This document shows positions 1,079 to 29,553 of a stretch of DNA of 29,553 bases, in pieces. Source of the DNA: a virus (taxonomy: Duplodnaviria > Heunggongvirae > Uroviricota > Caudoviricetes). Under the pieces are notes generated by a model. The model had not been told where the DNA came from. It did not search any database and saw only the letters and a program-made list of their open reading frames with translations. The position numbers and the translations under genes are program-made. Position 1 is the stretch's first letter. Every line of letters begins with the position of its first letter. Where the stretch lies: the IMG/VR virus record IMGVR_UViG_2579778538_000006, positions 1 through 29,553 of that record. One strand, written 5' to 3'.

Positions 1079-1093
1079 AATTTCGGTAAATAG

Positions 1094-1808: not shown

Positions 1809-1810
1809 GC

Positions 1811-8819: not shown

Positions 8820-8843
8820 TAAAAAAGCCGCCCGCAGGCGGCG
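8820..8843 (-). terminator. Rho-independent terminator downstream of Q (minus strand)
   Basis: On the minus strand: GCCGCC-TGCG-GGCGGC hairpin followed by TTTTTT, immediately after the Q stop codon. Confidence 0.65.
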
Positions 8844-8847
8844 ATGT

Positions 8848-12688: not shown

Positions 12689-12741
12689 CCGGCGTCAGTC
12701 CGGGAAACCTTCACGATTAACCCTTAATTTCAGGAAAAACT

Positions 12742-13815
12742 ATGCGCCAGGAAACCCGCTTTAAATTTAATGCCTACCTGTCCCGTGTTGCCGAACTGAA
12801 CGGCATCGACGCCGGTGATGTGTCGAAAAAATTCACCGTTGAACCGTCGGTCACCCAGACCCTGATGAACACCATGCAGGAGTCCTCTGACTTTCTGACC
12901 CGCATCAACATTGTGCCGGTCAGCGAAATGAAAGGGGAAAAAATTGGTATTGGTGTCACCGGCTCCATCGCCAGCACCACCGACACCGCCGGTGGCACCG
13001 AGCGTCAGCCGAAGGACTTCTCGAAGCTGGCGTCAAACAAGTACGAATGCGACCAGATTAACTTCGATTTTTATATCCGCTACAAAACGCTTGACCTGTG
13101 GGCGCGTTATCAGGATTTCCAGCTCCGTATCCGTAACGCCATTATCAAACGCCAGTCCCTTGATTTCATCATGGCCGGTTTTAACGGCGTGAAGCGTGCC
13201 GAAACCTCTGACCGCAGCAGCAATCCGATGTTGCAGGATGTGGCGGTCGGCTGGCTGCAGAAATACCGCAATGAAGCCCCGGCGCGCGTGATGAGCAAGG
13301 TCACTGACGAGGAAGGCCGCACCACCTCTGAGGTTATCCGCGTGGGTAAGGGCGGTGATTATGCCAGCCTTGATGCACTGGTGATGGATGCGACCAACAA
13401 CCTGATTGAGCCGTGGTATCAGGAAGACCCTGACCTTGTGGTGATTGTGGGACGTCAGCTACTGGCGGACAAGTATTTCCCCATCGTCAACAAGGAGCAG
13501 GACAACAGCGAAATGCTGGCCGCTGACGTCATCATCAGCCAGAAACGCATCGGTAATCTGCCGGCGGTACGCGTTCCGTACTTCCCGGCGGATGCGATGC
13601 TCATCACGAAGCTGGAAAACCTGTCCATCTACTACATGGATGACAGCCATCGCCGCGTGATTGAGGAAAACCCGAAACTCGACCGCGTGGAGAACTACGA
13701 GTCAATGAACATTGATTACGTGGTGGAAGACTACGCCGCTGGTTGTCTGGTGGAAAAAATTAAGGTCGGTGATTTCTCCACACCGGCTAAAGCGACCGCA
13801 GAGCCGGGAGCGTAA
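12742..13815 (+). CDS. N: Major capsid protein N, 357 aa
   Basis: 357 aa as in P2 N; follows scaffold gene. Confidence 0.9.
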   Translation: MRQETRFKFNAYLSRVAELNGIDAGDVSKKFTVEPSVTQTLMNTMQESSDFLTRINIVPVSEMKGEKIGIGVTGSIASTTDTAGGTERQPKDFSKLASNKYECDQINFDFYIRYKTLDLWARYQDFQLRIRNAIIKRQSLDFIMAGFNGVKRAETSDRSSNPMLQDVAVGWLQKYRNEAPARVMSKVTDEEGRTTSEVIRVGKGGDYASLDALVMDATNNLIEPWYQEDPDLVVIVGRQLLADKYFPIVNKEQDNSEMLAADVIISQKRIGNLPAVRVPYFPADAMLITKLENLSIYYMDDSHRRVIEENPKLDRVENYESMNIDYVVEDYAAGCLVEKIKVGDFSTPAKATAEPGA

Positions 13816-13818
13816 CCG

Positions 13819-14562
13819 ATGACGAGTCCCGCACAGCGCCACATGATGCGGGTCTCGGCAGCGATGACCGCGCAGCGGGAAGCCGCCCCGCTGCGACATG
13901 CAACTGTCTATGAGCAGATGCTGGTTAAGCTCGCCGCAGACCAGCGCACACTGAAAGCGATTTATTCAAAAGAGCTGAAGGCCGCGAAAAAACGCGAACT
14001 GCTTCCGTTCTGGTTGCCGTGGGTGAACGGCGTGCTGGAGCAGGGCAAAGGCGCACAGGATGACATTCTGATGACGGTCATGCTGTGGCGTCTGGATACC
14101 GGCGATATTGCCGGTGCGCTGGAGATTGCCCGTTATGCCCTGAAATACGGTCTGACCATGCCGGGTAAACACCGCCGTACCCCGCCGTACATGTTCACCG
14201 AGGAGGTGGCACTTGCGGCCATGCGCGCCCACGCTGCCGGTGAGTCTGTGGATACCCGCCTGCTGACGGACACCCTTGAACTGACCGCCACGGCTGACAT
14301 GCCTGATGAAGTGCGCGCAAAGCTGCACAAAATCACAGGTCTGTTTCTGCGTGACGCTGGTGATGCCGCAGGGGCGCTGGCGCACCTGCAACGCGCGACA
14401 CAGCTCGACTGTCAGGCAGGCGTCAAAAAAGAGATTGAACGACTGGAGCGGGAGCTGAAACCGAAGCCGGAGCCGCAGCCCAAAGCGGCCACCCGCGCCC
14501 CACGTAAGACCCGGAGCGTGACACCGGCAAAACGTGGACGCCCGAAAAAGAAAGCCAGTTAA
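13819..14562 (+). CDS. M: Terminase endonuclease (small) subunit M, 247 aa
   Basis: 247 aa as in P2 M; basic Lys/Arg/Pro-rich C-terminus; position after N. Confidence 0.85.
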   Translation: MTSPAQRHMMRVSAAMTAQREAAPLRHATVYEQMLVKLAADQRTLKAIYSKELKAAKKRELLPFWLPWVNGVLEQGKGAQDDILMTVMLWRLDTGDIAGALEIARYALKYGLTMPGKHRRTPPYMFTEEVALAAMRAHAAGESVDTRLLTDTLELTATADMPDEVRAKLHKITGLFLRDAGDAAGALAHLQRATQLDCQAGVKKEIERLERELKPKPEPQPKAATRAPRKTRSVTPAKRGRPKKKAS

Positions 14563-14660
14563 CAACGAATGCGCCCCGCGCCAGGGCGGCACGCCGGTCA
14601 GTGAGGGTGAATCACCTGACCCTGTACCGGCGTCCACCGCCCGACTTTTCAGAGGTAGTC

Positions 14661-15170
14661 ATGATGACGCTGATTATTCCGCGAAAGGAGGCTCCCGTGT
14701 CCGGTGAGGGTACGGTGGTCATCCCGCAACCGGCAGGCGACGAGCCGGTGATTAAAAACACGTTCTTTTTTCCCGATATCGACCCGAAGCGCGTCCGGGA
14801 ACGTATGCGCCTTGAGCAGACCGTCGCCCCCGCCCGTCTGCGTGAGGCCATCAAGTCAGGCATGGCGGAGACGAATGCGGAGCTGTACGAGTACCGCGAA
14901 CAGAAAATTGCCGCCGGTTTTACGCGTCTGGCGGACGTCCCGGCGGACGACATCGACGGTGAAAGCATCAAAGTTTTTTACTACGAGCGCGCCGTGTGTG
15001 CGATGGCGACCGCGTCGCTTTATGAGCGTTACCGCGGCGTGGATGCCAGTGCCAAGGGCGACAAGAAGGCCGACAGCATTGACAGCACCATTGATGAGCT
15101 GTGGCGGGATATGCGCTGGGCAGTGGCGCGCATCCAGGACAAGCCGCGCTGCATCGTGAGTCAAATCTGA
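14661..15170 (+). CDS. L: Head completion/stabilisation protein L, 169 aa
   Basis: Start at ATGATG 14661 (GAGG RBS) gives 169 aa, matching P2 L; stop overlaps X start (TGATG). Confidence 0.8.
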   Translation: MMTLIIPRKEAPVSGEGTVVIPQPAGDEPVIKNTFFFPDIDPKRVRERMRLEQTVAPARLREAIKSGMAETNAELYEYREQKIAAGFTRLADVPADDIDGESIKVFYYERAVCAMATASLYERYRGVDASAKGDKKADSIDSTIDELWRDMRWAVARIQDKPRCIVSQI

Positions 15171-15373
15171 TGAAGACCTTTGCGCTACAGGGCGACACGC
15201 TCGACGCCATTTGTGTCCGGTATTACGGGCGCACTGAGGGCGTGGTTGAGACCGTGCTCGCCGCAAATCCGGGACTGGCTGAACTGGGTGCGGTGCTGCC
15301 GCACGGCACCGCCGTCGAACTGCCCGACGTTCAGACCGCGCCCGTGGCTGAAACTGTCAATCTGTGGGAGTAA
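15170..15373 (+). CDS. X: Tail protein X, 67 aa
   Basis: 67 aa as in P2 X; start overlaps L stop at 15168-15172. Confidence 0.8.
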   Translation: MKTFALQGDTLDAICVRYYGRTEGVVETVLAANPGLAELGAVLPHGTAVELPDVQTAPVAETVNLWE

Positions 15374-15376
15374 CGC

Positions 15377-15658
15377 ATGACAGCAGAAGAAAAAAGCGTC
15401 CTGTCGCTTTTCATGATTGGGGTGCTGATTGTTGTCGGCAAGGTGCTTGCCGGTGGTGAACCCATCACCCCGCGTCTGTTTATCGGGCGCATGTTGCTCG
15501 GTGGTTTTGTCTCGATGGTTGCCGGTGTTGTTCTGGTGCAGTTTCCTGACCTGTCACTGCCTGCGGTGTGCGGCATCGGCTCCATGCTGGGTATCGCCGG
15601 TTATCAGGTGATTGAGATTGCCATTCAGCGCCGCTTTAAGGGCAGGGGGAAACCGTAA
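15377..15658 (+). CDS. Y: Holin (P2 Y-like), 93 aa
   Basis: 93 aa with hydrophobic transmembrane segments and charged C-terminus; first gene of lysis cassette; size equals P2 Y. Confidence 0.8.
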   Translation: MTAEEKSVLSLFMIGVLIVVGKVLAGGEPITPRLFIGRMLLGGFVSMVAGVVLVQFPDLSLPAVCGIGSMLGIAGYQVIEIAIQRRFKGRGKP

Positions 15659-16155
15659 TGCCGGTAATTAACACACATCAGAATATCGCCGCCTTTCTCG
15701 ACATGCTGGCCGTGTCCGAAGGGACGGCGAATCATCCGCTGACGAAAAACCGGGGCTATGACGTGATAGTCACCGGACTGGACGGAAAGCCGGAAATTTT
15801 CACCGACTACAGTGACCACCCGTTCGCGCATGGCCGACCGGCGAAGGTGTTTAACCGTCGCGGTGAAAAATCCACGGCCTCCGGTCGCTATCAGCAGCTT
15901 TACCTGTTCTGGCCGCACTACCGCAAACAGCTTGCCCTGCCGGATTTCAGTCCGTTGTCGCAGGACAGACTCGCCATTCAGTTGATCCGCGAACGCGGTG
16001 CACTGGATGACATCCGGGCGGGACGCATTGAGCGCGCCATTTCACGCTGTCGCAATATCTGGGCGTCCCTGCCGGGTGCCGGTTACGGTCAGCGTGAGCA
16101 TTCACTGGAAAAACTGGTCACCGTCTGGCGTACCGCCGGCGGCGTACCGGCTTAA
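15658..16155 (+). CDS. K: Endolysin (P2 K-like lysozyme), 165 aa
   Basis: 165 aa as in P2 K; immediately follows holin with ATGA-type overlap. Confidence 0.85.
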   Translation: MPVINTHQNIAAFLDMLAVSEGTANHPLTKNRGYDVIVTGLDGKPEIFTDYSDHPFAHGRPAKVFNRRGEKSTASGRYQQLYLFWPHYRKQLALPDFSPLSQDRLAIQLIRERGALDDIRAGRIERAISRCRNIWASLPGAGYGQREHSLEKLVTVWRTAGGVPA

Positions 16156-16169
16156 ACGGAGTAAACACC

Positions 16170-16595
16170 ATGAAGAAATTATCCCTTTCACTGATGCTGA
16201 ACGTGTCGCTGGCGCTGATGCTGGCACTGTCCCTGATTTACCCGCAGAGCGTGGCCGTCAATTTTGTCGCCGCCTGGGCGATTCTGGCGACGGTTATCTG
16301 TGTGGTTGCCGGTGGTGTCGGCGTGTATGCCACGGAGTATGTACTGGAACGCTACGGGCGGGAGCTGCCGCCGGAATCGCTGGCCGTGCAGATTGTCACG
16401 TCGCTGTTTTTGCAGCCGGTGCCGTGGCGCAGACGGGCGGCGGCTCTGGTGGTGATGGTGGCGACGTTTGTCTCGCTGATTGCTGCCGGGTGGATTTTTA
16501 CCGCGCTGATTTATCTCATGACGTCGCTGTTTTTCCGGCTGATACGCACGGCCTGCCGTCAGCGTATTGAGGGGCGGGAACCATGTCAAAGCTGA
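16170..16595 (+). CDS. lysA: Lysis regulatory membrane protein LysA, 141 aa
   Basis: 141 aa multi-pass hydrophobic protein at the P2 lysA position. Confidence 0.75.
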   Translation: MKKLSLSLMLNVSLALMLALSLIYPQSVAVNFVAAWAILATVICVVAGGVGVYATEYVLERYGRELPPESLAVQIVTSLFLQPVPWRRRAAALVVMVATFVSLIAAGWIFTALIYLMTSLFFRLIRTACRQRIEGREPCQS

Positions 16596-17008
16596 TGACT
16601 GTGCTGGTTGTGTTGTTATCGCTGGCGGTGGCCGGTCTGTTTCTGGTGAAACACAAAAATGACAGCCTGCGCGCCTCGCTGGACAGGGCGAATAACGTCG
16701 CCAGTGAACAGCAGACGACCATCACCATGCTGAAAAATCAGCTTCATGTTGCCCTCACCAGGGCAGACAAAAACGAGCTGGCGCAGGTGGCACTGCGTCA
16801 GGAACTGGAGAACGCCGCGAAGCGTGAAGCACAGCGCGAGAAAACCATCACGAGGTTACTCAATGAAAACGAAGATTTCCGCCACTGGTACGGTGCTGAC
16901 CTGCCTGATGCTGTGCGCCGGTTGCACCAGCGCCCCGCCTGCGCAGACGCCAGTGATTGTCGCCAACGCCTGCCCGAAAGTGAGCCTTTGCCCGATGCCG
17001 GGCAGTGA
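16583..17008 (+). CDS. lysB: Inner-membrane spanin component LysB (Rz-like), 141 aa
   Basis: N-terminal TM anchor then coiled-coil periplasmic region; 141 aa as in P2 LysB. Confidence 0.8.
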   Translation: MSKLMTVLVVLLSLAVAGLFLVKHKNDSLRASLDRANNVASEQQTTITMLKNQLHVALTRADKNELAQVALRQELENAAKREAQREKTITRLLNENEDFRHWYGADLPDAVRRLHQRPACADASDCRQRLPESEPLPDAGQ

Positions 17009-17153
17009 CCCGGAGACGAACGGCGATTTAAGTGCCGATATCCGGCAGCTTGAGAACGCGCTGGCACGCTGTGCCAGCCAGGTAAAAATGATTAAACACT
17101 GTCAGGACGAAAACGATGCTCAAACCCGACAGCCTGCGCAGGGCGCTGACTGA
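16863..17153 (+). CDS. lysC: Outer-membrane lipoprotein spanin component LysC (Rz1-like), 96 aa, embedded in +1 frame of lysB 3' end
   Basis: Internal ATG at 16863 in alternative frame; signal peptide with Cys-containing lipobox-like segment (TVLTCLMLCAGCTS); 96 aa equals P2 LysC; overlaps lysB and the start of R. Confidence 0.75.
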   Translation: MKTKISATGTVLTCLMLCAGCTSAPPAQTPVIVANACPKVSLCPMPGSDPETNGDLSADIRQLENALARCASQVKMIKHCQDENDAQTRQPAQGAD

Positions 17154-17583
17154 TGCCGTCACGGTGCTGAAAACCAGTCCCGAGATGCTGCGGATATTCG
17201 TGGATAACGGGAGTATTGCCTCCACACTGGCGACGTCGCTGTCATTTGAAAAGCGTTACACGCTCAATGTCATTGTGACCGACTTTACCGGTGATTTTGA
17301 CCTGCTCATCGTGCCGGTGCTGGCGTGGCTGCGGGAAAATCAGCCCGACATCATGACCACCGACGAAGGCCAGAAAAAGGGCTTCACGTTTTATGCAGAC
17401 ATCAACAATGACAGCAGCTTTGATATCAGCATCAGCCTGATGCTGACCGAGCGCACGCTGGTCAGTGAGGTGGATGGCGCGCTGCATGTGAAGAATATCC
17501 CGGAACCCCCGCCGCCGGAGCCGGTCACCCGCCCGATGGAGCTTTATATCAATGGCGAACTGGTGAGCAAGTGGGATGAATGA
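17116..17583 (+). CDS. R: Tail completion protein R, 155 aa
   Basis: 155 aa as in P2 R; position after lysis cassette. Confidence 0.8.
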   Translation: MLKPDSLRRALTDAVTVLKTSPEMLRIFVDNGSIASTLATSLSFEKRYTLNVIVTDFTGDFDLLIVPVLAWLRENQPDIMTTDEGQKKGFTFYADINNDSSFDISISLMLTERTLVSEVDGALHVKNIPEPPPPEPVTRPMELYINGELVSKWDE

Positions 17584-18028
17584 GTTTAAGCGTTTTGAAG
17601 ACCGGCTGACCGGACTTATTGAATCGCTGTCACCGTCAGGGCGTCGGCGACTGAGTGCCGAACTGGCGAAACGTCTGCGTCAGAGTCAGCAGCGTCGGGT
17701 GATGGCACAGAAAGCCCCGGACGGCACACCCTACGCGCCACGCCAGCAGCAGATCGCCAGAAAAAAGACCGGTCGTGTTAAGCGAAAAATGTTTGCGAAA
17801 CTTATCACCAGTCGTTTTTTGCATATCCGCGCCAGCCCGGAACAGGCATCAATGGAATTTTACGGCGGGAAGTCGCCGAAAATCGCCAGTGTGCATCAGT
17901 TCGGTCTGTCGGAAGAAACCCGGAAAGACGGTAAGAAAATTGATTATCCGGCGCGTCCTCTGCTCGGCTTTACCGGTGAGGATGTGCAGATGATTGAAGA
18001 GATTATCCTGGCTCACCTTGAGCGTTAG
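17576..18028 (+). CDS. S: Tail completion protein S, 150 aa
   Basis: 150 aa as in P2 S; start overlaps R stop. Confidence 0.8.
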   Translation: MNEFKRFEDRLTGLIESLSPSGRRRLSAELAKRLRQSQQRRVMAQKAPDGTPYAPRQQQIARKKTGRVKRKMFAKLITSRFLHIRASPEQASMEFYGGKSPKIASVHQFGLSEETRKDGKKIDYPARPLLGFTGEDVQMIEEIILAHLER

Positions 18029-18094
18029 TTGTGCCATTCCCGACACCTCATCGTCACATTGCCGCCGGTATGACCCGGCGGCATCCTTCCCGTT

Positions 18095-18730
18095 ATGAAC
18101 ACTCTCGCAAATATTCAGGAACTCGCGCGCGCACTGCGCAACATGATTCGTACCGGCATTATCGTCGAAACCGACCTTAACGCCGGTCGCTGCCGTGTGC
18201 AGACCGGCGGCATGTGTACCGACTGGCTGCAGTGGCTGACCCATCGCGCCGGACGTTCGCGCACATGGTGGGCACCTTCCGTGGGGGAACAGGTGCTGAT
18301 TCTGGCCGTGGGCGGTGAACTCGACACGGCGTTCGTTCTGCCGGGGATTTATTCCGGCGATAACCCCTCGCCGTCTGTGTCGGCGGATGCCCTGCATATC
18401 CGTTTCCCTGACGGGGCGGTGATTGAGTATGAACCCGAAACCAGTGCACTCACGGTAAGCGGAATTAAAACGGCCAGCGTGACGGCTTCTGATTCTGTTA
18501 CCGCCACGGTGCCTGTGGTCATGGTGAAAGCATCAACCCGCATCACCCTGGACACACCGGAGGTGGTCTGCACCAACAGGCTGATTACCGGCACGCTGGA
18601 AGTGCAGAAGGGCGGGACGATGCGCGGCAACATTGAACACACCGGCGGTGAACTCTCATCAAACGGTAAGGTACTGCATACCCATAAACACCCCGGCGAC
18701 AGCGGCGGCACAACCGGGAGTCCTCTATGA
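18095..18730 (+). CDS. V: Baseplate spike/assembly protein V, 211 aa
   Basis: 211 aa as in P2 V; first gene of V-W-J-I-H-G operon after a 66-bp intergenic region. Confidence 0.85.
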   Translation: MNTLANIQELARALRNMIRTGIIVETDLNAGRCRVQTGGMCTDWLQWLTHRAGRSRTWWAPSVGEQVLILAVGGELDTAFVLPGIYSGDNPSPSVSADALHIRFPDGAVIEYEPETSALTVSGIKTASVTASDSVTATVPVVMVKASTRITLDTPEVVCTNRLITGTLEVQKGGTMRGNIEHTGGELSSNGKVLHTHKHPGDSGGTTGSPL

Positions 18731-19074
18731 CAGCGCGTTATCTCGGAATGAATCGCAGTGATGGCCTGACTGTCACTGACCTTGAGCATATCAGCCAGAG
18801 TATCGGCGATATCCTGCGCACACCGGTCGGCTCACGGGTGATGCGTCGTGATTACGGCTCGTTGCTGGCGTCAATGATTGACCAGCCGCAGACCCCGGCG
18901 CTTGAGTTGCAGATTAAGGTCGCCTGTTACATGGCGGTGCTGAAATGGGAACCCCGCGTCACGCTGTCATCTGTCACCACGGCGCGCAGTTTTGACGGGC
19001 GAATGACGGTCACGTTAACCGGCCAGCACAACGACACCGGCCAGCCACTTTCGTTAACCATCCCTGTGAGTTGA
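18727..19074 (+). CDS. W: Baseplate protein W (gp25-like), 115 aa
   Basis: 115 aa as in P2 W; ATGA overlap with V. Confidence 0.85.
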   Translation: MTARYLGMNRSDGLTVTDLEHISQSIGDILRTPVGSRVMRRDYGSLLASMIDQPQTPALELQIKVACYMAVLKWEPRVTLSSVTTARSFDGRMTVTLTGQHNDTGQPLSLTIPVS

Positions 19075-19078
19075 AACC

Positions 19079-19987
19079 ATGCCGATTATCGACCTGAACC
19101 AGCTACCCGCACCGGATGTGGTCGAGGAGCTGGACTTTGAAACCATTCTCGCCGAACGCAAGGCGACACTGATTTCCCTTTACCCGGAAGACCAGCAGGA
19201 GGCGGTCGCCCGTACCCTGACGCTGGAATCTGAGCCTCTCGTCAAACTGCTGGAGGAAAATGCTTATCGTGAGCTTATCTGGCGTCAGCGTGTGAATGAG
19301 GCCGCACGGGCGGTAATGCTGGCCTGTGCCGCCGGTAATGACCTTGATGTGATTGGTGCCAATTACAACACCACGCGCCTGATTATCACCCCGGCAGATG
19401 ATTCGACCCTCCCGCCGACACCGGCAGTGATGGAATCTGACACGGATTATCGTCTGCGTATTCAGCAGGCGTTTGAAGGTTTAAGCGTTGCCGGGTCGGT
19501 GGGTGCCTATCAGTATCATGGTCGCAGTGCCGACGGGCGCGTCGCAGATATCTCTGTCACCAGTCCGTCTCCGGCCTGCGTCACCATCTCCGTGCTGTCT
19601 CGCGAAAATAACGGTGTTGCATCCGAAGACCTGCTGGCGGCGGTGCGTAACGCCCTTAATGGCGAGGACGTCAGGCCGGTGGCCGACCGCGTGACCGTGC
19701 AGTCTGCCGCCATCGTTGAATACCAGATAAACGCCACGCTTTACCTTTACCCTGGTCCCGAAAGCGAACCCATCCGCGCTGCTGCCGTGAAAAAACTGGA
19801 AGCGTACATCACAGCACAGCACCGGCTGGGGCGCGACATCCGTCTGTCTGCCATTTATGCTGCTTTGCATGTGGAAGGCGTGCAGCGTGTCGAACTGACT
19901 GCTCCGCTGGCCGACATCGTGCTCAACAGTACGCAGGCGTCTTTCTGTACCGAATACCACGTCGTGACCGGAGGCTCGGATGAGTGA
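19079..19987 (+). CDS. J: Baseplate assembly protein J, 302 aa
   Basis: 302 aa as in P2 J. Confidence 0.85.
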   Translation: MPIIDLNQLPAPDVVEELDFETILAERKATLISLYPEDQQEAVARTLTLESEPLVKLLEENAYRELIWRQRVNEAARAVMLACAAGNDLDVIGANYNTTRLIITPADDSTLPPTPAVMESDTDYRLRIQQAFEGLSVAGSVGAYQYHGRSADGRVADISVTSPSPACVTISVLSRENNGVASEDLLAAVRNALNGEDVRPVADRVTVQSAAIVEYQINATLYLYPGPESEPIRAAAVKKLEAYITAQHRLGRDIRLSAIYAALHVEGVQRVELTAPLADIVLNSTQASFCTEYHVVTGGSDE

Positions 19988-20510
19988 TTCGCGACTGCTG
20001 CCGACCGGCTCATCACCGCTTGAGGTCGCCGCCGCAAAAGCCTGTGCGGAAATTGAAAAAACGCCGGTCAGTATTCGTGAGCTGTGGAACCCGGACACCT
20101 GCCCGGCAAATCTGCTGCCGTGGCTGGCGTGGGCGTTTTCGGTCGACAGGTGGGATGAAAAGTGGCCGGAAGCGACCAAGCGCGCCGTTATTCGCGATGC
20201 CTATTTCATCCACTGTCATAAAGGCACTATAGGCGCAATCCGGCGTGTGGTGGAGCCGCTCGGCTATCTCATTAACGTAAAGGAATGGTGGGAGACAAAC
20301 GACCCGCCCGGAACCTTTCGCCTTGATATCGGTGTGCTGGAAAGCGGCATCACGGAGGAGATGTATCTGGAAATGGAACGGCTGATTGCCGATGCCAAAC
20401 CCGCAAGTCGCCACCTTATCGGCCTGAACATTATCCAGGACATTCCCGGCTATCTGTATACAGGCGGTGTGGTCTGTGATGGTGATGTTATTACTGTTTA
20501 TCCCGGATAA
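19980..20510 (+). CDS. I: Baseplate/tail protein I, 176 aa
   Basis: 176 aa as in P2 I; overlaps J 3' end. Confidence 0.85.
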   Translation: MSDSRLLPTGSSPLEVAAAKACAEIEKTPVSIRELWNPDTCPANLLPWLAWAFSVDRWDEKWPEATKRAVIRDAYFIHCHKGTIGAIRRVVEPLGYLINVKEWWETNDPPGTFRLDIGVLESGITEEMYLEMERLIADAKPASRHLIGLNIIQDIPGYLYTGGVVCDGDVITVYPG

Positions 20511-20520
20511 GTGAGAAACA

Positions 20521-23256
20521 ATGAGCACGAAATTTAAAACCGTTATCACTACTGCCGGAGCCGCGAAGCTGGCAGCCGCCACTGTCCCCGGCGGGAAAAA
20601 AGTAAACCTGTCTGCAATGGCCGTGGGTGACGGTAATGGCAAATTGCCGGTGCCGGATGCCGGTCAGACGAAGCTGGTGCATGAGGTCTGGCGTCATGCC
20701 CTGAATAAAGTCAGCGTGGATAATAAGAATAAAAACTATATCGTGGCTGAACTGGTTGTTCCGCCAGAAGTGGGCGGCTTCTGGATGCGTGAGCTTGGTC
20801 TGTATGACGATGCCGGAACACTGATTGCGGTATCCAACATGGCAGAAAGCTATAAGCCAGAACTGGCTGAAGGCTCCGGACGTGCGCAGACCTGCCGCAT
20901 GGTTATTATTCTCAGCAACGTGGCGTCCGTTGAGCTGAGTATTGATGCCAGCACAGTGATGGCGACGCAGGATTACGTCGATGACAAAATCGCAGAGCAT
21001 GAGCAGTCCCGCCGCCATCCTGACGCCACGCTGACAGAAAAAGGTTTTACTCAGTTAAGCAGTGCAACAAACAGCACCAGTGAGTCATTGGCAGCAACGC
21101 CAAAAGCGGTCAAGGCAGCAAATGACAACGCAAATTCACGTCTGGCGAAAAATCAGAATGGTGCAGATATCCAGGATAAATCAGCTTTTCTGGACAATGT
21201 TGGCGTTACCAGCCTGACGTTTATGAAAAACAATGGCGAAATGCCGGTTGATGCTGATCTGAATACGTTTGGTCCTGTTAAGGCTTATTCAGGTATCTGG
21301 TCTAAAGCTACATCCACTAACGCGACGGCTGCTAAAAATTTCCCTGAAGACGGTGCAGTCGGTGTACTGGAGGTATTCAATGGCGGTAATTTTTCAGGAA
21401 TGCAGCGTTATACCACCAGAACAGGCAATGTTTATATGCGCAACCTTTCTGGCACATGGAATGGTTCAGACGGTCCGTGGAGTTACTGGCGTCAGGTTCA
21501 GTCTGCAACACGCCCCCTGAGCACAACCATTGACCTGAACACGCTCGGAGGCGCAGAGCATCTTGGTTTATGGCGAAACAGTAGTGGCTCAATCGCTTCA
21601 TTTGACCGCAACTATCCGGAAGAAGGAAGTTATGGTCAGGGACTCCTTGAAGTTCTTGAAGGTGGTGGTTACTCGCGAACGCAGCGTTACACGACCCGCC
21701 GTGGAAATGTTTATGTTCGCTGTCTTTCGGCCTCGTGGGATGCAGAGAACCCACAGTGGGAGCCGTGGTCAAGAGTGGGCTACCAGTCAGAAAGCCGTTA
21801 TTACGACGGTGATTTGAATGATGTAACCTCACCAGGTATTTACAGCGTTACAGGTAAAGCGACCAATGGTCCAATACTGGACGGAAACGGCGTGACAGTC
21901 CTCGGTATTCTGGAAGTGTTGAGGCGCTTTGATGGTGTTAACGTATGGCAGCGTTATACAACTGCCGGAACAGGTACAACCCTTAAAGGTCGCACGTTTG
22001 AGCGCGTTTTTACCGGCAGCTCATGGAGCGAATGGCGGGAAGTTTACACATCTTATTCACTTCCCCTGAATCTGGGTATCGGTGGCGCAGTAGCAAAACT
22101 CACCAGCCTGGACTGGCAGACATACGATTTTGTGCCGGGCAGTCTGATAACCGTTCGGCTGGATAACATGACCAATATTCCCGACGGTATGGACTGGGGC
22201 GTCATTGATGGCAACCTGATAAACATCTCAGTCGGTCCGAGTGATGATTCTGGTTCGGGACGCTCAATGCATGTATGGCGCAGCACTGTAAGTAAAGCCA
22301 ACTACCGCTTTTTTATGGTGCGTATTTCAGGAAATCCGGGAAGCCGCACGATTACAGCAAGACGAGTACCAATCATTGACGAAGCCCAGACATGGGGCGC
22401 GAAACAGACATTCAGTGCTGGCCTTTCTGGTGAACTGTCCGGCAATGCGGCGACAGCAACAAAGCTGAAAACAGCCCGTAAAATTAATAACGTTTCGTTT
22501 GATGGAACATCAGATATTAACCTGACGCCGAAAAATATTGGTGCATTTGCTTCAGGAAAAACAGGAGACACCGTTGCGAATGATAAAGCCGTTGGATGGA
22601 ACTGGAGTAGCGGAGCCTATAACGCAACTATTGGTGGGGCATCAACGTTAATTCTTCATTTTAATATCGGTGAAGGAAGTTGCCCCGCCGCCCAGTTCCG
22701 CGTTAATTATAAGAACGGCGGTATTTTTTATCGTTCTGCTCGTGACGGTTACGGATTCGAGGCTGACTGGTCTGAGTTTTATACCACAACGCGAAAACCT
22801 ACAGCGGGAGATGTCGGTGCACTGCCGTTATCTGGTGGTCAATTGAATGGTGCTCTGGGTATAGGAACATCCAGTGCTCTTGGCGGTAATTCGATTGTTT
22901 TGGGTGATAATGACACGGGCTTTAAACAAAATGGTGATGGTAATCTGGATGTTTATGCTAATAGCGTCCATGTTATGCGCTTTGTCTCGGGAAGTATTCA
23001 AAGTAATAAAACCATAAATATTACGGGGCGTGTTAATCCCTCGGATTACGGTAACTTTGATTCCCGCTATGTGAGAGATGTCAGACTTGGCACACGTGTT
23101 GTTCAGACCATGCAAAAAGGCGTGATGTATGAAAAATCAGGCCATGTAATCACGGGGCTTGGTATTGTCGGTGAAGTCGATGGTGATGATCCAGCAGTAT
23201 TCAGACCAATACAAAAATACATCAATGGCACATGGTATAACGTTGCGCAGGTGTAA
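20521..23256 (+). CDS. H: Tail fibre protein H (conserved N-terminal anchor, enlarged mosaic C-terminal receptor-binding region), 911 aa
   Basis: N-terminus (MSTKFKTVITTAGAAKLAAA...) resembles recalled P2 H; protein much longer than P2 H (recalled as 669 aa); C-terminal part contains three degenerate repeats of about 93 aa and has lower GC. Confidence 0.85.
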   Translation: MSTKFKTVITTAGAAKLAAATVPGGKKVNLSAMAVGDGNGKLPVPDAGQTKLVHEVWRHALNKVSVDNKNKNYIVAELVVPPEVGGFWMRELGLYDDAGTLIAVSNMAESYKPELAEGSGRAQTCRMVIILSNVASVELSIDASTVMATQDYVDDKIAEHEQSRRHPDATLTEKGFTQLSSATNSTSESLAATPKAVKAANDNANSRLAKNQNGADIQDKSAFLDNVGVTSLTFMKNNGEMPVDADLNTFGPVKAYSGIWSKATSTNATAAKNFPEDGAVGVLEVFNGGNFSGMQRYTTRTGNVYMRNLSGTWNGSDGPWSYWRQVQSATRPLSTTIDLNTLGGAEHLGLWRNSSGSIASFDRNYPEEGSYGQGLLEVLEGGGYSRTQRYTTRRGNVYVRCLSASWDAENPQWEPWSRVGYQSESRYYDGDLNDVTSPGIYSVTGKATNGPILDGNGVTVLGILEVLRRFDGVNVWQRYTTAGTGTTLKGRTFERVFTGSSWSEWREVYTSYSLPLNLGIGGAVAKLTSLDWQTYDFVPGSLITVRLDNMTNIPDGMDWGVIDGNLINISVGPSDDSGSGRSMHVWRSTVSKANYRFFMVRISGNPGSRTITARRVPIIDEAQTWGAKQTFSAGLSGELSGNAATATKLKTARKINNVSFDGTSDINLTPKNIGAFASGKTGDTVANDKAVGWNWSSGAYNATIGGASTLILHFNIGEGSCPAAQFRVNYKNGGIFYRSARDGYGFEADWSEFYTTTRKPTAGDVGALPLSGGQLNGALGIGTSSALGGNSIVLGDNDTGFKQNGDGNLDVYANSVHVMRFVSGSIQSNKTINITGRVNPSDYGNFDSRYVRDVRLGTRVVQTMQKGVMYEKSGHVITGLGIVGEVDGDDPAVFRPIQKYINGTWYNVAQV

Positions 23257-23259
23257 ATT

Positions 23260-23787
23260 ATGCAGCATTTAAAAAACATTAAGTCAGGTAATCCAAAAAC
23301 AAAAGAACAATATCAGCTAACAAAGAATTTTGATGTTATCTGGTTATGGTCCGAAGACGGAAAAAACTGGTATGAGGAAGTAAGTAATTTTCAGGAAGAC
23401 ACGATAAAGATTGTTTACGATGAAAATAATATTATTGTCGGCATCACCAGAGATGCTTCAACGCTCAACCCTGAAGGTTTCAGCGTTGTCGAGGTTCCTG
23501 ATATTACCGCCAACCGACGTGCTGATGACTCAGGGAAATGGATGTTTAAGGATGGTGCCGTGATTAAGCGGATTTATACGGCAGACGAACAGCAACAACA
23601 GGCAGAATCACAAAAGGCCGCGTTACTTTCCGAAGCGGAAAGCGTTATTCAGCCACTGGAGCGCGCTGTCAGGCTGAACATGGCAACAGATGAGGAGCGT
23701 AGCCGACTGGAAGCATGGGAACGCTACAGTGTTCTGGTCAGCCGTGTGGATCCTGCAAATCCTGAATGGCCGGAAATGCCGCAATAA
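23260..23787 (+). CDS. G: Tail fibre assembly chaperone (P2 G-like Tfa), 175 aa
   Basis: 175 aa as in P2 G; immediately downstream of H; Gln-rich linker and conserved C-terminal '[11 protein letters not shown]'-type tail typical of Tfa proteins. Confidence 0.8.
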
Positions 23788-23848
23788 GTGATATGATCTC
23801 TTGTGTTAGTTAACATAGCTATAGTACAGAGTAAGGCCTAATCTGACA

Positions 23849-23872
23849 GTCCGCTCTGTGCTAGGAGCGGAC
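23849..23872 (+). terminator. Hairpin downstream of G (GTCCGCTC-N8-GAGCGGAC), possible terminator or regulatory stem
   Basis: 8-bp perfect inverted repeat read directly; not followed by a clean T-tract, so terminator function is uncertain. Confidence 0.3.
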
Positions 23873-24176
23873 ATTATCAACATCATGCTATGTTAATGTA
23901 TAAAGTGAAGATAAATTGATATAATAAGGCCACCATGAATATTTCAGAACCTTGTCAAAAGGTTTGCACATACTCTAGTCTTGCAATGTGTAGTTGATAG
24001 TTCCACTGAGGAGGTTCTTCGACATTCTTTATAAAAATGTACATTTTCATCAATAATAAGAGGTAAAAGGGCTTTAATAGTTTTTTGTGGATGTTATGTC
24101 CACTCATAAATTTTGAGATAAGTATTGAGTTGAGATAAAGTTAAACTCGTTAAATTCACCTTTAAAAGGATAAAGC

Positions 24177-24704
24177 ATGGACTGGAAAGATCTTGCATCA
24201 ACCGCTGTGTATACAGGTATGACTGATGAAAATGAAAACATATGGGAACGTGTTGATGGGGTTGACGTTGCCTTCATAGGTGCCTTTCTTACTGCGCACT
24301 TGAGCCTTGAAAAGTATATTACTGATTATCTTGGATTAAGATATCCTTCGTTAGCTTGGGGTGATGCAAAACTCACATTTTCACAAAAAATAGCTTTAAT
24401 ACAACATGAGCCTGCAAAACCCCCTTATGATGAAATATATTTAAGAATAAAAGACTTTAACAGCATAAGAAATAAAATCAGTCATCAATTGAATTATCAG
24501 ATTACGGATAAAGAAAAAAGTAAGTTTGTGGACTTCTACATGAAGATTACTAAAGCCAGTAAAACTAAACCAAATATTGATATTGATAACATGGCAGATT
24601 TGTTGGATTTTTTCGTGTCGATGACAAAATCCTATTTTGCTAGTGCTATTTCTTATTATCACTGTAATAAAAAGGTTGCAGGTAAAAGTAATAAAATTGA
24701 TTAA
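24177..24704 (+). CDS. Hypothetical protein with HEPN-like R-N-x3-H motif, 175 aa; AT-rich cargo in the G-FI (Z/fun) slot
   Basis: AT-rich ORF with A-rich RBS region; 'IRNKISH' (Arg codon 24468-24470, His codon 24483-24485) matches Rx4-6H; preceded by a roughly 390-bp AT-rich non-coding stretch (23788-24176). Confidence 0.6.
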   Translation: MDWKDLASTAVYTGMTDENENIWERVDGVDVAFIGAFLTAHLSLEKYITDYLGLRYPSLAWGDAKLTFSQKIALIQHEPAKPPYDEIYLRIKDFNSIRNKISHQLNYQITDKEKSKFVDFYMKITKASKTKPNIDIDNMADLLDFFVSMTKSYFASAISYYHCNKKVAGKSNKID

Positions 24705-24879
24705 TAAAACTGGACTTAGGGATAATTAATATATAGACGTTCTATCATTTTTAGAGTGTGCGGCAGCTCCATACATTCATGCGGATGTCAGCACCTCGCT
24801 CAAAGCAGACAGTCAGATTTGATAGCGTTTGGACTATGTAAATAGTCAGTTGGAAAATGAGTGAGTACAAACCAGGACA

Positions 24880-24906
24880 GGCGGGCGAATTGCCCGCCTT
24901 TTCTTT
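24880..24906 (+). terminator. Rho-independent terminator (GGCGGGC-GAATT-GCCCGCC + TTTTCTTT)
   Basis: 7-bp GC-rich stem, 5-nt loop, T-rich tail, read directly; lies between the cargo gene and the FI promoter region. Confidence 0.7.
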
Positions 24907-25002
24907 ATCTGTTGTTTCATCCACTGACCAGCCAGGTCAAATAGCGCCTCATACTCTGCACAACAGAAAATAATTGCACCCATTAACCACGGAGTTAAAC
25001 GG

Positions 25003-26193
25003 ATGAGTGACTATCATCACGGCGTGCAGGTGCTGGAGATTAACGAGGGCACCCGCGTCATTTCCACTGTATCCACGGCCATTGTCGGCATGGTCTGCAC
25101 GGCCAGCGATGCGGATGCGGAAACCTTCCCCCTCAATAAACCTGTGCTGATTACCAATGTGCAGACCGCAATTGCAAAGGCCGGTAAAAAAGGCACGCTG
25201 GCGGCATCGTTGCAGGCCATCGCCGACCAGTCAAAACCGGTCACCGTTGTCGTGCGTGTGGAAGACGGCACCGGCGACGACGAGGAAACGAAACTTGCGC
25301 AAACCGTTTCCAATATCATCGGCACCACCGACGAAAACGGTCAGTACACCGGACTGAAAGCTCTGCTGGCGGCGGAGTCGGTAACCGGTGTTAAACCGCG
25401 CATTCTCGGTGTGCCGGGACTGGACACCAAAGAGGTTGCCGTCGCACTGGCATCAGTCTGTCAGAAGCTGCGCGCTTTCGGGTATATCAGCGCATGGGGC
25501 TGTAAGACCATTTCCGAGGTGAAAGCCTACCGCCAGAATTTCAGCCAGCGTGAGCTGATGGTCATCTGGCCGGATTTCCTCGCATGGGATACGGTCGCCA
25601 GTACCACCGCCACCGCGTATGCCACCGCCCGTGCGCTGGGGCTGCGTGCCAGGATCGACCAGGAGCAGGGCTGGCATAAAACGCTGTCCAATGTCGGGGT
25701 GAACGGTGTTACCGGCATCAGCGCATCTGTATTCTGGGATTTGCAGGAGTCCGGCACCGATGCTGACCTGCTTAACGAGTCAGGCGTTACTACGCTGATT
25801 CGCCGTGACGGTTTCCGCTTCTGGGGTAACCGTACCTGCTCTGATGACCCGCTGTTCCTCTTTGAAAACTACACCCGCACAGCGCAGGTGTTGGCCGACA
25901 CGATGGCTGAGGCGCACATGTGGGCGGTGGACAAACCCATCACCGCAACGCTGATTCGCGACATCGTTGACGGCATCAATGCCAAATTCCGTGAGCTGAA
26001 AACAAACGGCTATATCGTGGATGCGACCTGCTGGTTCAGCGAAGAATCCAACGATGCGGAAACCCTCAAGGCCGGAAAACTGTATATCGACTACGACTAT
26101 ACCCCGGTGCCTCCTCTTGAAAACCTGACCCTGCGCCAGCGTATTACTGATAAATACCTGGCAAATCTGGTCACCTCGGTTAACAGCAATTAA
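25003..26193 (+). CDS. FI: Contractile tail sheath protein FI, 396 aa
   Basis: 396 aa as in P2 FI; GGAG RBS at 24991-24994; followed by tube gene. Confidence 0.9.
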   Translation: MSDYHHGVQVLEINEGTRVISTVSTAIVGMVCTASDADAETFPLNKPVLITNVQTAIAKAGKKGTLAASLQAIADQSKPVTVVVRVEDGTGDDEETKLAQTVSNIIGTTDENGQYTGLKALLAAESVTGVKPRILGVPGLDTKEVAVALASVCQKLRAFGYISAWGCKTISEVKAYRQNFSQRELMVIWPDFLAWDTVASTTATAYATARALGLRARIDQEQGWHKTLSNVGVNGVTGISASVFWDLQESGTDADLLNESGVTTLIRRDGFRFWGNRTCSDDPLFLFENYTRTAQVLADTMAEAHMWAVDKPITATLIRDIVDGINAKFRELKTNGYIVDATCWFSEESNDAETLKAGKLYIDYDYTPVPPLENLTLRQRITDKYLANLVTSVNSN

Positions 26194-26205
26194 GGAGCCT
26201 GACCG

Positions 26206-26724
26206 ATGGCAATGCCGCGCAAACTCAAATACATGAATGTCTTTCTGAACGGTTACAGCTATCAGGGCGTTGCAAAGTCCGTCACGCTGCCAAAACTGAC
26301 CCGTAAGCTCGAAAACTATCGCGGTGCGGGGATGAACGGCAGCGCACCGGTAGACCTCGGCCTTGATGACGATGCGCTGTCAATGGAGTGGTCGCTTGGG
26401 GGCTTCCCGGATTCGGTTATCTGGGAGCTTTACGCTGCAACCAGTGCTGATGCCGTACCGATTCGTTTTGCTGGTTCTTACCAGCGCGACGATACCGGCG
26501 AAACGGTGGCCGTCGAAGTGGTCATGCGTGGGCGTCAGAAAGAAGTCGACACCGGAGAGGGTAAACAGGGAGAGGATACCGAATCGAAACTCCCGGTGAT
26601 TTGTACTTATTTCAAGCTGACGATGGACGGTAAGGAGCTGGTCGAAATCGACACCATCAACATGATTGAGAAGGTGAACGGCGTCGACCGGCTGGAGCAA
26701 CACCGCCGCAATATCGGCCTGTGA
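26206..26724 (+). CDS. FII: Tail tube protein FII, 172 aa
   Basis: 172 aa as in P2 FII. Confidence 0.9.
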   Translation: MAMPRKLKYMNVFLNGYSYQGVAKSVTLPKLTRKLENYRGAGMNGSAPVDLGLDDDALSMEWSLGGFPDSVIWELYAATSADAVPIRFAGSYQRDDTGETVAVEVVMRGRQKEVDTGEGKQGEDTESKLPVICTYFKLTMDGKELVEIDTINMIEKVNGVDRLEQHRRNIGL

Positions 26725-26780
26725 TTTTCATCCGGTCAGCCTGGCTGACCGGTTAACCCCGATTCAGAAGTGAGAAAACC

Positions 26781-27056
26781 ATGAACAAAGAAAATGTCAT
26801 TACCCTGGACAATCCGGTCAAACGTGGTGAGCAGGTTATCGAACAGGTCACGCTGATGAAACCCAATGCGGGGACGCTGCGCGGTGTCAGTCTGGCTGCG
26901 GTTGCAAACTCCGAAGTCGATGCACTGATTAAGGTGCTGCCGCGCATGACGGCACCGATGCTGACCGAGCAGGAGGTCGCCGCGCTGGAACTGCCTGACC
27001 TTGTGGCGCTGGCCGGTAAGGTGGTCGGTTTTTTGTCGCCGAACTCGGTGCAGTGA
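26781..27056 (+). CDS. E: Tail assembly chaperone E, 91 aa
   Basis: 91 aa as in P2 E; located between tube and tape-measure genes; contains slippery heptamer near its 3' end. Confidence 0.8.
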   Translation: MNKENVITLDNPVKRGEQVIEQVTLMKPNAGTLRGVSLAAVANSEVDALIKVLPRMTAPMLTEQEVAALELPDLVALAGKVVGFLSPNSVQ

Positions 27057-27208
27057 CGTTCCCGAAAAATCTCTCGGTCGATGACCTGATGGCGGATGTG
27101 GCAGTGATATTTCACTGGCCGCCATCAGAACTGTATCCCATGAGCCTGACCGAACTCATCACATGGCGCGAAAAGGCGCTCCGGCGAAGCGGAAACACGA
27201 ATGAGTAA
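27035..27208 (+). CDS. E': E' extension reached by programmed -1 frameshift (E+E' fusion chaperone, about 142 aa total)
   Basis: Slippery heptamer T_TTT_TTG at 27029-27035 in E frame; the -1 frame is open from there to TAA at 27206-27208, overlapping the T start; fused length matches my recollection of P2 E+E'. Confidence 0.65.
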   Translation, partial: VAELGAVTFPKNLSVDDLMADVAVIFHWPPSELYPMSLTELITWREKALRRSGNTNE

Positions 27209-28436
27209 CAATGTAAAATTACAGGTATTGCTCAGGGCTGTTGACCAGGCATCCCGCCCGTTTAAATCCATCCGCACAGCGAGCAAGTCGCTGTCGGGGG
27301 ATATCCGGGAAACACAAAAATCACTGCGCGAGCTGAACGGTCACGCATCCCGTATTGAGGGATTCCGCAAGACCAGTGCACAGCTCGCCGTGACTGGTCA
27401 GGAACTGAAAAAAGCCAGACAGGAAGCCGCAGCTCTGGCAGTCCAGTTTAAAAATACTGAACGACCGACAAATGCACAGGCAAAGGCAATGGAAGCCGCG
27501 CGTAAAAATGCGTCTGAGTTACAGGCGAAATATAACAGCCTGAGATTGTCGGTACAGCGCCAGCGTCAGGAATTGAGTCAGACGGGTATTAATACCCGCA
27601 ATCTTGCACATGATGAGCAGGGACTGAAAAACCGTATCAGTGAAACCACCGCACAGCTTAACCGTCAGCGCGACGCGCTGGCGCGTGTCAGTGCGCAACA
27701 GGCAAAACTTAACGCAGTAAAACAGCGTTATCAGGCAGGCAAGGAACTGGCCGGAAATATGGCCTCAGTGGGCGCTGCCGGTGTGGGGATTGCTGCTGCG
27801 GGAACGATGGCCGGAGTTAAGCTGCTGATGCCCGGTTATGAGTTTGCGCAGAAAAACTCAGAATTGCAGGCCGTGCTAGGTGTGGCAAAAGACTCCGCCG
27901 AAATGGCCGCGCTCCGCAAGCAGGCGCGCCAGCTCGGCGATAATACCGCCGCCTCGGCAGATGATGCAGCAGCAGCTCAAATCATCGTGGCTAAATCGGG
28001 AGCGGATAAAAATGGCATCCTGGCACAAACACCGGCCATTTTGAATATGTCACTGGCAAACAAGAAAACGATGGAGGAAAACGCCACTTTACTTATTGGG
28101 ACAAAATCGGCATTCGGGCTTGCTGACGATAAGGCTTCCCATATTGCTGATGTTATTTCAATGACGATGAATAAATCGCAAGCCACATTCGAGGGACTAA
28201 GTGATTCACTTACCTATGTCGGGCCAGTGGCAAAAGATGCAGGTGTCAGCCTGGAAGAAACAGCAGCAATGTTAGGTGCATTACACGATGCAAATATCAG
28301 TGGGTCTATGGCTGGCACAGGAAGTCGAGCAGTACTGAGTCGTTTGCAGGCACCAACCGGGAAAGCGTATGACGCTATTAAAGAGCTTGGCGTAAAGACA
28401 ACTGACAGCAAAGGTAATACGTGCGTATTTTCATGA
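27201..28436 (+). pseudogene. T: Tail tape measure protein T, 3'-truncated (411 aa remaining) by IS insertion
   Basis: Alpha-helical, Ala/Gln-rich N-terminal half typical of tape-measure proteins; reading frame ends abruptly at 28436 where IS21-family terminal repeats begin; P2 T is recalled as about 815 aa. Confidence 0.8.
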
Positions 28437-28439
28437 AAG

Positions 28440-28550
28440 GAGATCACTCAATAACTTCCATCGAGATCGGGTAATAACATTTGAACAGATCGCTGAATAA
28501 CATCGATGGAGATCACTTTTGACTCATTTTGTTATTCAGTGATCTCCATC
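28440..28550. repeat. IS21-family terminal multiple repeats (three copies of GGAGATCACT / AGTGATCTCC)
   Basis: Copies at 28440-28449, 28510-28519 and inverted at 28541-28550; additional ATAACATCGATGGAGATCAC / GTGATCTCCATCAATGTTAT inverted pair. Confidence 0.7.
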
Positions 28551-28614
28551 AATGTTATTGGAACTTCACAGGTGTGTTGATCTGTATCTTTTGCCATTCC
28601 GGTAAAGGATACCT

Positions 28615-29553
28615 ATGCCAACAGTTCCAATTTCTATGAGAAAACTTAAAGAAATTCTTAGGCTTAAATACGGTGTTGGACTCAGCCATCGACAAATTGG
28701 TCGTAGTCTTGCAATCTCCCCTTCCGTTGTATCCAGATATGCTAATCGGGCGGCTCAACTTGGCATAAAGCAGTGGCCCTTACCTACAGGATGGGATGAT
28801 ACAAAACTAAAACATGCGTTCCTTCAGACCCAGGTTAAGATGAAGAAGCACTCTCTGCCTGACTGGGCTACAGTACACCGGGAACTGCGTAATAAATGCG
28901 TGACGCTGCAGCTACTCTGGGAAGAATACTGTGAGCGTAATCCAGGCGGTTTTTACAGCTATAACCATTACTGCCGGATGTACCGTGAATGGCTCAAAAC
29001 CACTTCACCATCAATGCGTCAGGTACATAAAGCTGGCGAAAAACTTTTCGTTGATTACTGTGGACCTACCGTTGGCGTTACCGACCCTGAGACCGGAGAA
29101 ATAAGAACTGCTCAGGTCATCGTAGCTGTTCTCGGGGCATCAAGTTACACATGGGCAGAGGCCACCTGGTCTCAGCAGCTTGAAGACTGGGTGATGAGTC
29201 ATGTTCGCTGCTTCCAGTGGTTGGGTGGCGTTCCTGAACTTGTTGTTCCGGACAATCTGAAAAGCGCCACATCCAGGGCATGTAAGTATGATCCTGACGT
29301 TAACCCTACCTACCAGCAGATGCTTGAGCATTATAATGTCGCAGTTTTGCCTGCGCGGCCACGTAAACCGAAAGATAAAGCCAAAGCTGAAGTTGGCGTT
29401 CAGGTTGTTGAACGCTGGATCATGGCCCGAATCAGGCATGAGATCTTCTACAGCCTTGCATCGCTTAATCAGCGCATTCGGGAGTTGCTGGAAAGACTGA
29501 ATAACAAAATAATGCAGAAGTTGGGTTATTCACGTGCAGAACTCTTCATCCAG
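28615..29553 (+). CDS. istA: IS21-family transposase IstA (5' partial; no stop within window)
   Basis: Frame open from ATG 28615 to window end (313 codons, translated by hand); N-terminal HTH (LKEILRLKYGVGLSHRQIGRSLAIS) and DDE-type core (FVDYCGP...VPDN...) typical of IstA; AAAGGA RBS upstream. Not in the ORF track because it lacks a stop in the window. Confidence 0.85.
   Translation, partial: MPTVPISMRKLKEILRLKYGVGLSHRQIGRSLAISPSVVSRYANRAAQLGIKQWPLPTGWDDTKLKHAFLQTQVKMKKHSLPDWATVHRELRNKCVTLQLLWEEYCERNPGGFYSYNHYCRMYREWLKTTSPSMRQVHKAGEKLFVDYCGPTVGVTDPETGEIRTAQVIVAVLGASSYTWAEATWSQQLEDWVMSHVRCFQWLGGVPELVVPDNLKSATSRACKYDPDVNPTYQQMLEHYNVAVLPARPRKPKDKAKAEVGVQVVERWIMARIRHEIFYSLASLNQRIRELLERLNNKIMQKLGYSRAELFIQ

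Follow-up and report, generated by a model that had tools for sequence, protein, structure and literature searches.

Gene T is an essential tail gene of the P2 operon FI-FII-E-E'-T-U-D, and nucleation and sizing of the tube and the sheath in P2-type tails require a tape measure of full length. P2 T mutants reportedly form no tails, a result that is traced to the classical P2 work of Lengyel et al. in 1974 and Christie et al. in 2002. Inside the tail tube, the tape measure serves as an unbroken ruler (PMC3185693), and in P2-like phages the length of the tail tracks the length of T (PMC3091744). Among insertion sequences (IS), IS21 was reported to lack target specificity (PMC10122671). Members of the IS21 family leave short target-site duplications of 4-8 bp, with 5 bp reported for both ISEc12 and IS21. 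In E. coli ST131 clade C/H30, ISEc12 splits the gene tssM and is flanked by a 5-bp duplication (PMC10711316). Disruption of prophage structural genes by IS elements is already known and commonplace, and equivalent T pseudogene halves are found in RefSeq.

Here, a window of 29,553 nt (the whole stretch of viral DNA analysed) was found to end within such an insertion. We consider it very probable that a complete ISEc12 transposed into gene T of a P2-like prophage and truncated its product, and that this prophage is expected to make no tails or plaques on its own. The case resembles that of tssM in that the same element, with a 5-bp duplication, split a large gene of a contractile machine roughly in half. 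The target, however, is a prophage tail gene here and a type VI secretion system (T6SS) gene there, and the T insertion is represented by one assembly and one or two sequencing runs, whereas the tssM insertion is fixed in a global clade. The coordinates of the features are collected in Table 1.

Table 1. Features at the T/ISEc12 junction (window positions; L008 is the locus label of scaffold KK736448.1)
Feature	Position	Strand	Remark
5' half of the P2-type tail tape measure gene T, codons 1-407 of 815	27201..28421	+	nucleotide identity to JJ2434 T; PF10145 and TIGR01760 matches
Left copy of the target-site duplication ATACG	28417..28421	.	right copy at L008 14061-14065
ISEc12, portion in the window	28422..29553	+	remainder (3' istA, istB, right end) at KK736448.1, L008 12591-14060
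IS-encoded tail of the truncated T product (CVFS and TGA), within the left terminal inverted repeat	28422..28436	+	
Left end of ISEc12, TG-starting terminal inverted repeat and GGAGATC(A/G) repeats	28422..28560	+	
istA, IS21-family DDE transposase, first 313 of 513 codons	28615..29553	+	ATG at 28615; rve match; window stops at scaffold gap

The genes upstream of T were the tail sheath (25003-26193), tail tube (26206-26724), E (26781-27056) and E' (27053-27208) genes. With the source scaffold included, the order was FI, FII, E, E', T, (IS), 'T, U, D and ogr, so that the P2 order of sheath, tube, E, E', T, U, D and ogr was kept. In the ORF list of the window, the frame at 27201-28436 (+) gives a product of 411 aa, the same ORF that the first-pass annotation had described as a T frame ending at 28436 after 411 codons. 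This product consists of 407 T residues and CVFS (translation end ...TDSKGNT-CVFS, then stop), and its TGA stop codon at 28434-28436 is IS sequence. The T portion shows 100% identity to the intact T of E. coli JJ2434 (2,448 nt, encoding 815 aa) over nt 1-1221, and the two sequences diverge from 28422 on. The cut therefore falls at codon 407 of 815, in agreement with the earlier estimate of about half length. That annotation had also placed the start of the element directly at the T stop; the IS indeed abuts T, but its exact first nucleotide is 28422 rather than the stop codon.

The profile PF10145 (PhageMin_Tail) matched residues 239-406 of the 411-aa product with an E value of 2.8e-41, covering profile positions 1-169 of 201, and TIGR01760 (tape_meas_TP901) matched from profile position 2 to 210 of 349 with 203 bits. 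Both alignments reach the C-terminal side of the product before the profile ends, which shows that the conserved tape-measure domain was cut. The uninterrupted allele shares 89% amino acid identity with P2 T and is colinear with it over 815 residues. The tape-measure domain lies between the E/E' chaperone genes and U-D, as in P2 gpT, but in place of a full-length colinear protein of ~815 aa the T frame makes residues 1-407 only, and the rest is displaced 2.58 kb downstream. The T of the window is a disrupted gpT member (a pseudogene), not a short variant.

The inserted DNA was identified by megablast against 5,426 complete E. coli genomes. The segment from 28422 to the window end was >99% identical to thousands of copies labelled 'IS21-like element ISEc12' in RefSeq, and identical transposase copies carry the RefSeq name 'IS21-like element ISEc12 family transposase'. 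When the scaffold gap was collapsed, the IS measured 2,581 bp and was the same in 2581 of 2581 nt as the ISEc12 copy of E. coli J-8, which, as named by RefSeq/PGAP, served as the naming standard. The full 513-aa IstA matched NF033546 (IS21 family transposase) with 310.5 bits (cut-off 160), as well as PF00665 (rve) and PF22483 (Mu-transpos_C_2); residues 10-46 gave only a weak HTH-like match. The istB gene lies directly downstream of istA, outside the window (L008 13229-13975). Its ORF is intact (248 aa by RefSeq annotation), has a Walker A motif (GATGSGKT), and matched PF01695 (IstB_IS21; E 2e-67) and NF038214 (IS21-like helper ATPase IstB; 270 bits, cut-off 200).

The left end of the IS, at 28422, opens with TGCGTATTTTC. 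Exact copies of GGAGATCACT start at 28439 and 28508 (direct) and at 28538 (minus strand) and are the sole copies in the 29.5-kb window, and degenerate GGAGATC(A/G) copies were found at about 28462 and 28486. These GGAGATC(A/G) repeats are presumed to be the IstA binding repeats. The left end TGCGTATTTTCATG adjoins unrelated DNA at seven individually fetched independent ISEc12 sites and, in viral and metagenome contigs, at 125 further distinct sites. All of these copies start with TGCGTATTTTCATGAAAGG right after the unrelated DNA, which fixes the left end at 28422. An end further to the left had been considered from BLAST extensions that reached 9-29 nt into the T flank. These extensions came from the top of about 3,300 records sorted by coverage; the loci concerned show unrelated flanks, and the extensions were rejected as chance similarity. 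The left end (TGCGTATTTTCATGAAAGGAGATCAC) and the reverse complement of the right end (TGCGTATTACCGTGAAGGAGATCG) agree at 8 of 8 tip positions, have the GGAGATC repeats in common and have the terminal TG...CA.

The assignment of the element to the IS21 family, proposed from the window alone, is thereby supported by the NF033546 score and by the family architecture, namely the DDE transposase IstA, the AAA+ protein IstB, TG...CA inverted repeats and a short duplication, and near-identity to the named copies makes it ISEc12 by RefSeq annotation. The reading of 28615 onward as a transposase was likewise borne out, as the rve DDE domain is present in the 313 aa encoded in the window. Together with IS21 and IS5376 (PMC10122671, PMC11208146), the element has istA (HTH, DDE and Mu-transposase C-terminal domain) and istB (AAA+), TG...CA ends with several internal repeats, a 5-bp duplication and no strong target preference. 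The IstA of ISEc12 is longer (513 aa) than the structurally studied IS5376 protein (about 400 aa), and the direct GGAGATCACT copies at its left end are 69 nt apart and accompanied by an extra inverted copy, compared with a 23-bp spacing in IS5376. Judging from the intact frames and the many polymorphic, near-identical copies in E. coli, this ISEc12 copy would be transposition-competent. However, a short-read scaffold may present the interior of an IS as a consensus over every ISEc12 copy of the genome, and the intact istA and istB may not describe the copy in T.

An exact-protein look-up found the 411-aa junction protein on three contigs only. One of them is the 160-kb scaffold GCA_000692675.1 KK736448.1 (locus L008), the start of which is identical to the last 12,353 nt of the window. 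The right IS end, GGTAATACGCA, precedes ATACG and T sequence in this scaffold: the element closes with ...CACGGTAATACGCA, followed by ATACG and then by CGACCTGTC, the continuation of T. ATACG occurs once at this site in the uninterrupted T of JJ2434, and its presence on both flanks of the IS identifies it as a 5-bp target-site duplication. When window 27201-28421 was joined to L008 14066-15292, the result was a 2,448-nt ORF that matched JJ2434 T at 2448 of 2448 nt. Past the 3' half of T, the scaffold continues with U, D and ogr and then with chromosomal fieF, pfkA and sbp. The first-pass annotation had expected the rest of T, U, D and ogr to lie beyond the IS, and all of them, followed by the right chromosomal flank, are indeed in L008; istB, the right end, the duplication and the 3' part of T, which it had proposed to seek past the window, were all located in KK736448.1.

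The sequence into which the IS integrated has one peculiarity. The uninterrupted target reads AAAGGTAATACGCGACC and shares GGTAATACGC with the tip at the right end of ISEc12. Nowhere else in the 31.9-kb prophage, on either strand, is there a 10-nt match to one of the IS tips, and the integration point lies within GGTAATACGC. One could propose that IstA occasionally recognises an end-like target sequence and integrates beside it, so that the insertion point was not random. If true, this would be a rare sequence-guided targeting atop the normally unspecific, IstB-driven choice, and such guided integration would be related to the formation of IS21 tandems with abutted ends. We regard this proposal as doubtful. 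No tip match of >7 nt was found in the flanks of the 125 other independent ISEc12 sites, on which ground a general attraction to end-like sequences was rejected, and the 10-nt mimic may be chance noticed after the fact. A general ISEc12 target motif was also rejected, with an information content of <=0.15 bit per position in the 125 distinct left flanks. In addition, a hybrid promoter at the T/IS junction, considered by analogy with IS21 tandems, was discarded; the T flank lacks a -35-like hexamer at the place taken by TTCACG in the right tip.

Whatever guided the choice of site, a single, complete and apparently active-type ISEc12 copy encoding the DDE transposase IstA and the AAA+ helper IstB entered T at codon 407/408 by an ordinary cut-and-paste-type integration, leaving the 5-bp duplication ATACG. 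The recipient is a P2-like (peduovirus) prophage that sits beside fieF-pfkA in a close E. coli relative of JJ2434. The 411-aa product lacks the C-terminal half of the ruler protein, and the insert places 2.58 kb between the late tail-operon promoter and what follows it, the rest of T, U and D. The integrase, repressor, replication, head, lysis and cargo genes stay intact. With residues 408-815 lost and the cut inside a conserved domain, tail assembly should fail. Given the known roles of P2 gene T and of tape measures, the prophage should be unable to make tails or plaque-forming particles alone. The insert may also lower the expression of U and D. No intrinsic-terminator-like site was predicted on the + strand of the IS, so polarity on U and D is only presumed.

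A real insertion could still be without effect on virions if another P2-like prophage supplied T (and U/D) in trans, or if the two T fragments sufficed. Several P2-like prophages are common in E. coli, with a median of two query-matching places per genome; the 3' T fragment has an in-frame ATG that opens a 381-aa ORF; and no terminator was predicted on the + strand within the IS. We nevertheless hold this to be very unlikely. The break falls inside the conserved TIGR01760/PF10145 domain of a protein that works as one unbroken ruler along the tail (PMC3185693). A colinear 815-aa T with 89-96% identity is kept in the best-matching 25 isolated peduovirus records, P2 included (160 phage records covered >=80% of the intact T). 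Moreover, particles complemented in trans would still package the T-defective genome and give no plaques on a naive host.

The age of the insertion was judged from its surroundings. JJ2434 matches the flanks of the IS at 100% over 11,221 nt on the upstream side and 5,816 nt on the downstream side, and the whole late region (window 8597-28421) is 99.955% identical. All late genes are full-length frames with the same lengths as in the annotated JJ2434 prophage. The early region (int, C, cox, B and A) is ~95% identical to JJ2434, and between A and the portal gene the cargo segment has no relation to its JJ2434 counterpart, in which a reverse-transcriptase gene is found; these differences are the usual mosaic pattern. 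One cargo ORF of the prophage matched the PADLOC candidate PDC-S64. JJ2434 holds five other ISEc12 places, showing that a donor copy was at hand in the lineage. The T/IS junction was absent from the 5,426 complete E. coli genomes searched by megablast, and this absence, along with the identical flanks, points to a recent, strain-specific insertion. The identity of the flanks suggests that it is very recent, and it is probably neutral. The suggestion that the prophage is domesticated or cryptic did not hold, given that its other genes are full-length and its flanks 100% identical to an intact prophage; the multiple lesions or decay of a cryptic prophage were not found in these genes or in the late region, which is 99.955-100% identical to JJ2434.

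Insertions of the same IS in T were also found in J-8, KOr024, CFSAN061763, FDAARGOS_1370, RM8082 and other genomes, with pseudogene halves annotated on either side. They lie at different nucleotides (the J-8 site is 21 bp upstream, with the duplication AACCT) in T alleles about 80-90% identical to the JJ2434-type T, indicating that they arose independently. In total, 23 of the 5,426 complete E. coli genomes carry ISEc12 in or beside a P2-like T gene. In the 12 genomes returned by the first search the IS always pointed the same way as T, and a control query with the IS inverted returned 11 in the opposite orientation; an orientation bias was therefore rejected as an ascertainment effect of the same-strand joining of the first query. 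The nine same-orientation sites that were fetched are all distinct; they span the stretch between E and the T/U boundary, and their duplications measure 5-7 bp. In unbiased samples, P2-like prophage DNA accounted for 6 of 91 metagenomic and 13 of 34 viral-contig distinct ISEc12 sites, which are scattered over S, X/holin, I/H, H, FI, FII, T, U, D, portal and terminase genes. An exact 34-mer scan of a one-genome-per-species collection gave no additional ISEc12 sites. T was rejected as an ISEc12 hot spot, as the sites all differ and are spread over many late genes.

This recurrence could be explained by selection, if knocking out the tail domesticates the prophage while the host keeps its immunity and defence cargo. 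The number of T-associated insertions, at no fewer than nine distinct sites (>=9), would agree with this, as would the share of metagenomic sites in P2-like prophage DNA, which is ~10x its genome share, and the prophage does carry cargo, the ORF matching PDC-S64 included. Such selection is nonetheless very improbable, since hits that spread over many late genes in both orientations (12 versus 11) are what relaxed selection on prophage DNA predicts. Furthermore, a tail knockout leaves induction and lysis possible, so that the gain for the host would be small, and the present insertion is limited to one lineage and was followed by no later decay. The pattern fits insertions that were tolerated in dispensable prophage DNA; it fits neither selection on T nor a hot spot.

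What closes the window is a scaffold gap of 237 N inside istA, not a contig end. The 21 nt before this gap are repeated after it, and the overlap collapses to the exact 2,581-bp IS, indicating that the N-run is a scaffolding artefact with no sequence missing. Another carrier of the junction protein is a 4.7-kb Logan contig of run SRR1180942, which ends 30 nt into the IS. That the T/IS junction itself is an assembly or scaffolding artefact, a repeat contig misplaced within an intact T, is extremely improbable: the gap does mark a region scaffolded from short-read contigs that break in a repeat, but both unique junctions lie inside contigs, a misjoin would not make a perfect 5-bp duplication of a sequence that intact T contains a single time, the gap edges together reconstitute exactly one ISEc12, and the Logan assembly of the SRR1180942 reads, a separate assembly, has the same left junction. 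The first-pass annotation had itself named such an artefact as what would overturn its reading, and the existence of both junctions, the duplication and the restoration of T upon deletion of the IS speak against it. The insertion is real and simple.

For annotation, T of this prophage should be treated as a pseudogene in two halves, the N-run as spurious, and the prophage as 'intact but for one IS hit'. The T insertion makes no open question testable; it is one more case of IS traffic disabling prophage structural genes in E. coli lineages with active ISEc12. The strain is predicted not to release infectious P2-like phage from the fieF-pfkA locus. Satellite P4 depends on P2 late genes, and from this need it would follow that the prophage alone would not provide tails to a P4-type satellite.

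The insertion point of ISEc12 in the tape measure gene T coincides exactly with a 10-nt mimic of the tip of the element. This target, GGTAATACG(C), was the sole 10-nt match to the ISEc12 tip across the 31.9-kb prophage. At 125 other distinct ISEc12 insertions from viral and metagenome contigs, tip matches reached at most 7 nt.

Features at the insertion, at other ISEc12 copies and in the prophage (L008, source scaffold KK736448.1; L010, L011 and L013 to L015, other loci)
Feature	Location	Details
T target GGTAATACG(C)	window 28412-28421; uninterrupted form, L010 32183-32192	resembles ISEc12 right tip GGTAATACGCA
Scaffold gap, 237 N	L008 12354-12590	inside istA; window end 29553 = L008 12353
ISEc12 copy between E and E'	L011 3504-6084	E. 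coli Esc31; flanks ...GTTTAC and GTTTCC...
CCAG-containing duplications	L013; L014; L015	RM8082 ACCAGAC; P30_L1_05.20 CCAGA; KOr024 ACCAG
Cargo segment	window 5820-8596	ORFs 6679-7452 and 7473-8453, + strand; P2 'old/tin' position, replication gene A to portal gene
175-aa ORF	window 24177-24704	+ strand; P2 Z/fun position, between tail-fibre assembly and sheath genes

Exact target duplications of 5-7 bp were found at the eight other ISEc12 sites of this set, unlike the copy in Esc31, whose flanks are without a clean direct repeat. In three ISEc12 insertions that arose independently in T or close to it, the duplications include the motif CCAG, and a general CCAG preference was not seen across the 125-site sample.

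The N-run inside istA is spurious. Both of its sides share a 21-nt overlap, CGTGCAGAACTCTTCATCCAG, and collapsing the gap yields an ISEc12 of exactly 2,581 bp.

The 175-aa ORF, which is also found in JJ2434, an E. coli strain carrying a closely related prophage with an uninterrupted T, was assigned to phrog_5483 (unknown function) and had no match in Pfam, NCBIfam or PADLOC. It contains an R-x4-H motif (RNKISH), which recalls HEPN nucleases.

Nothing in the JJ2434 prophage matches the cargo segment; there, a helix-turn-helix (HTH) gene and a reverse-transcriptase gene occupy the position. Among 5,426 complete E. coli genomes, only GN04171 has the segment in full. The PHROGs of both cargo ORFs are of unknown function; the 326-aa ORF matches, in its N-terminal part only, PDC-S64, a candidate defence family in PADLOC (E 2e-17).

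The prophage is a mosaic. Its early region (window 1-5819; int, C, cox, B and A) shares only ~95% identity with the JJ2434 prophage, whereas the late region (window 8597-28421) shares 99.955-100%. This difference in sequence identity implies that P2-like phages have recombined at or near the cargo locus.
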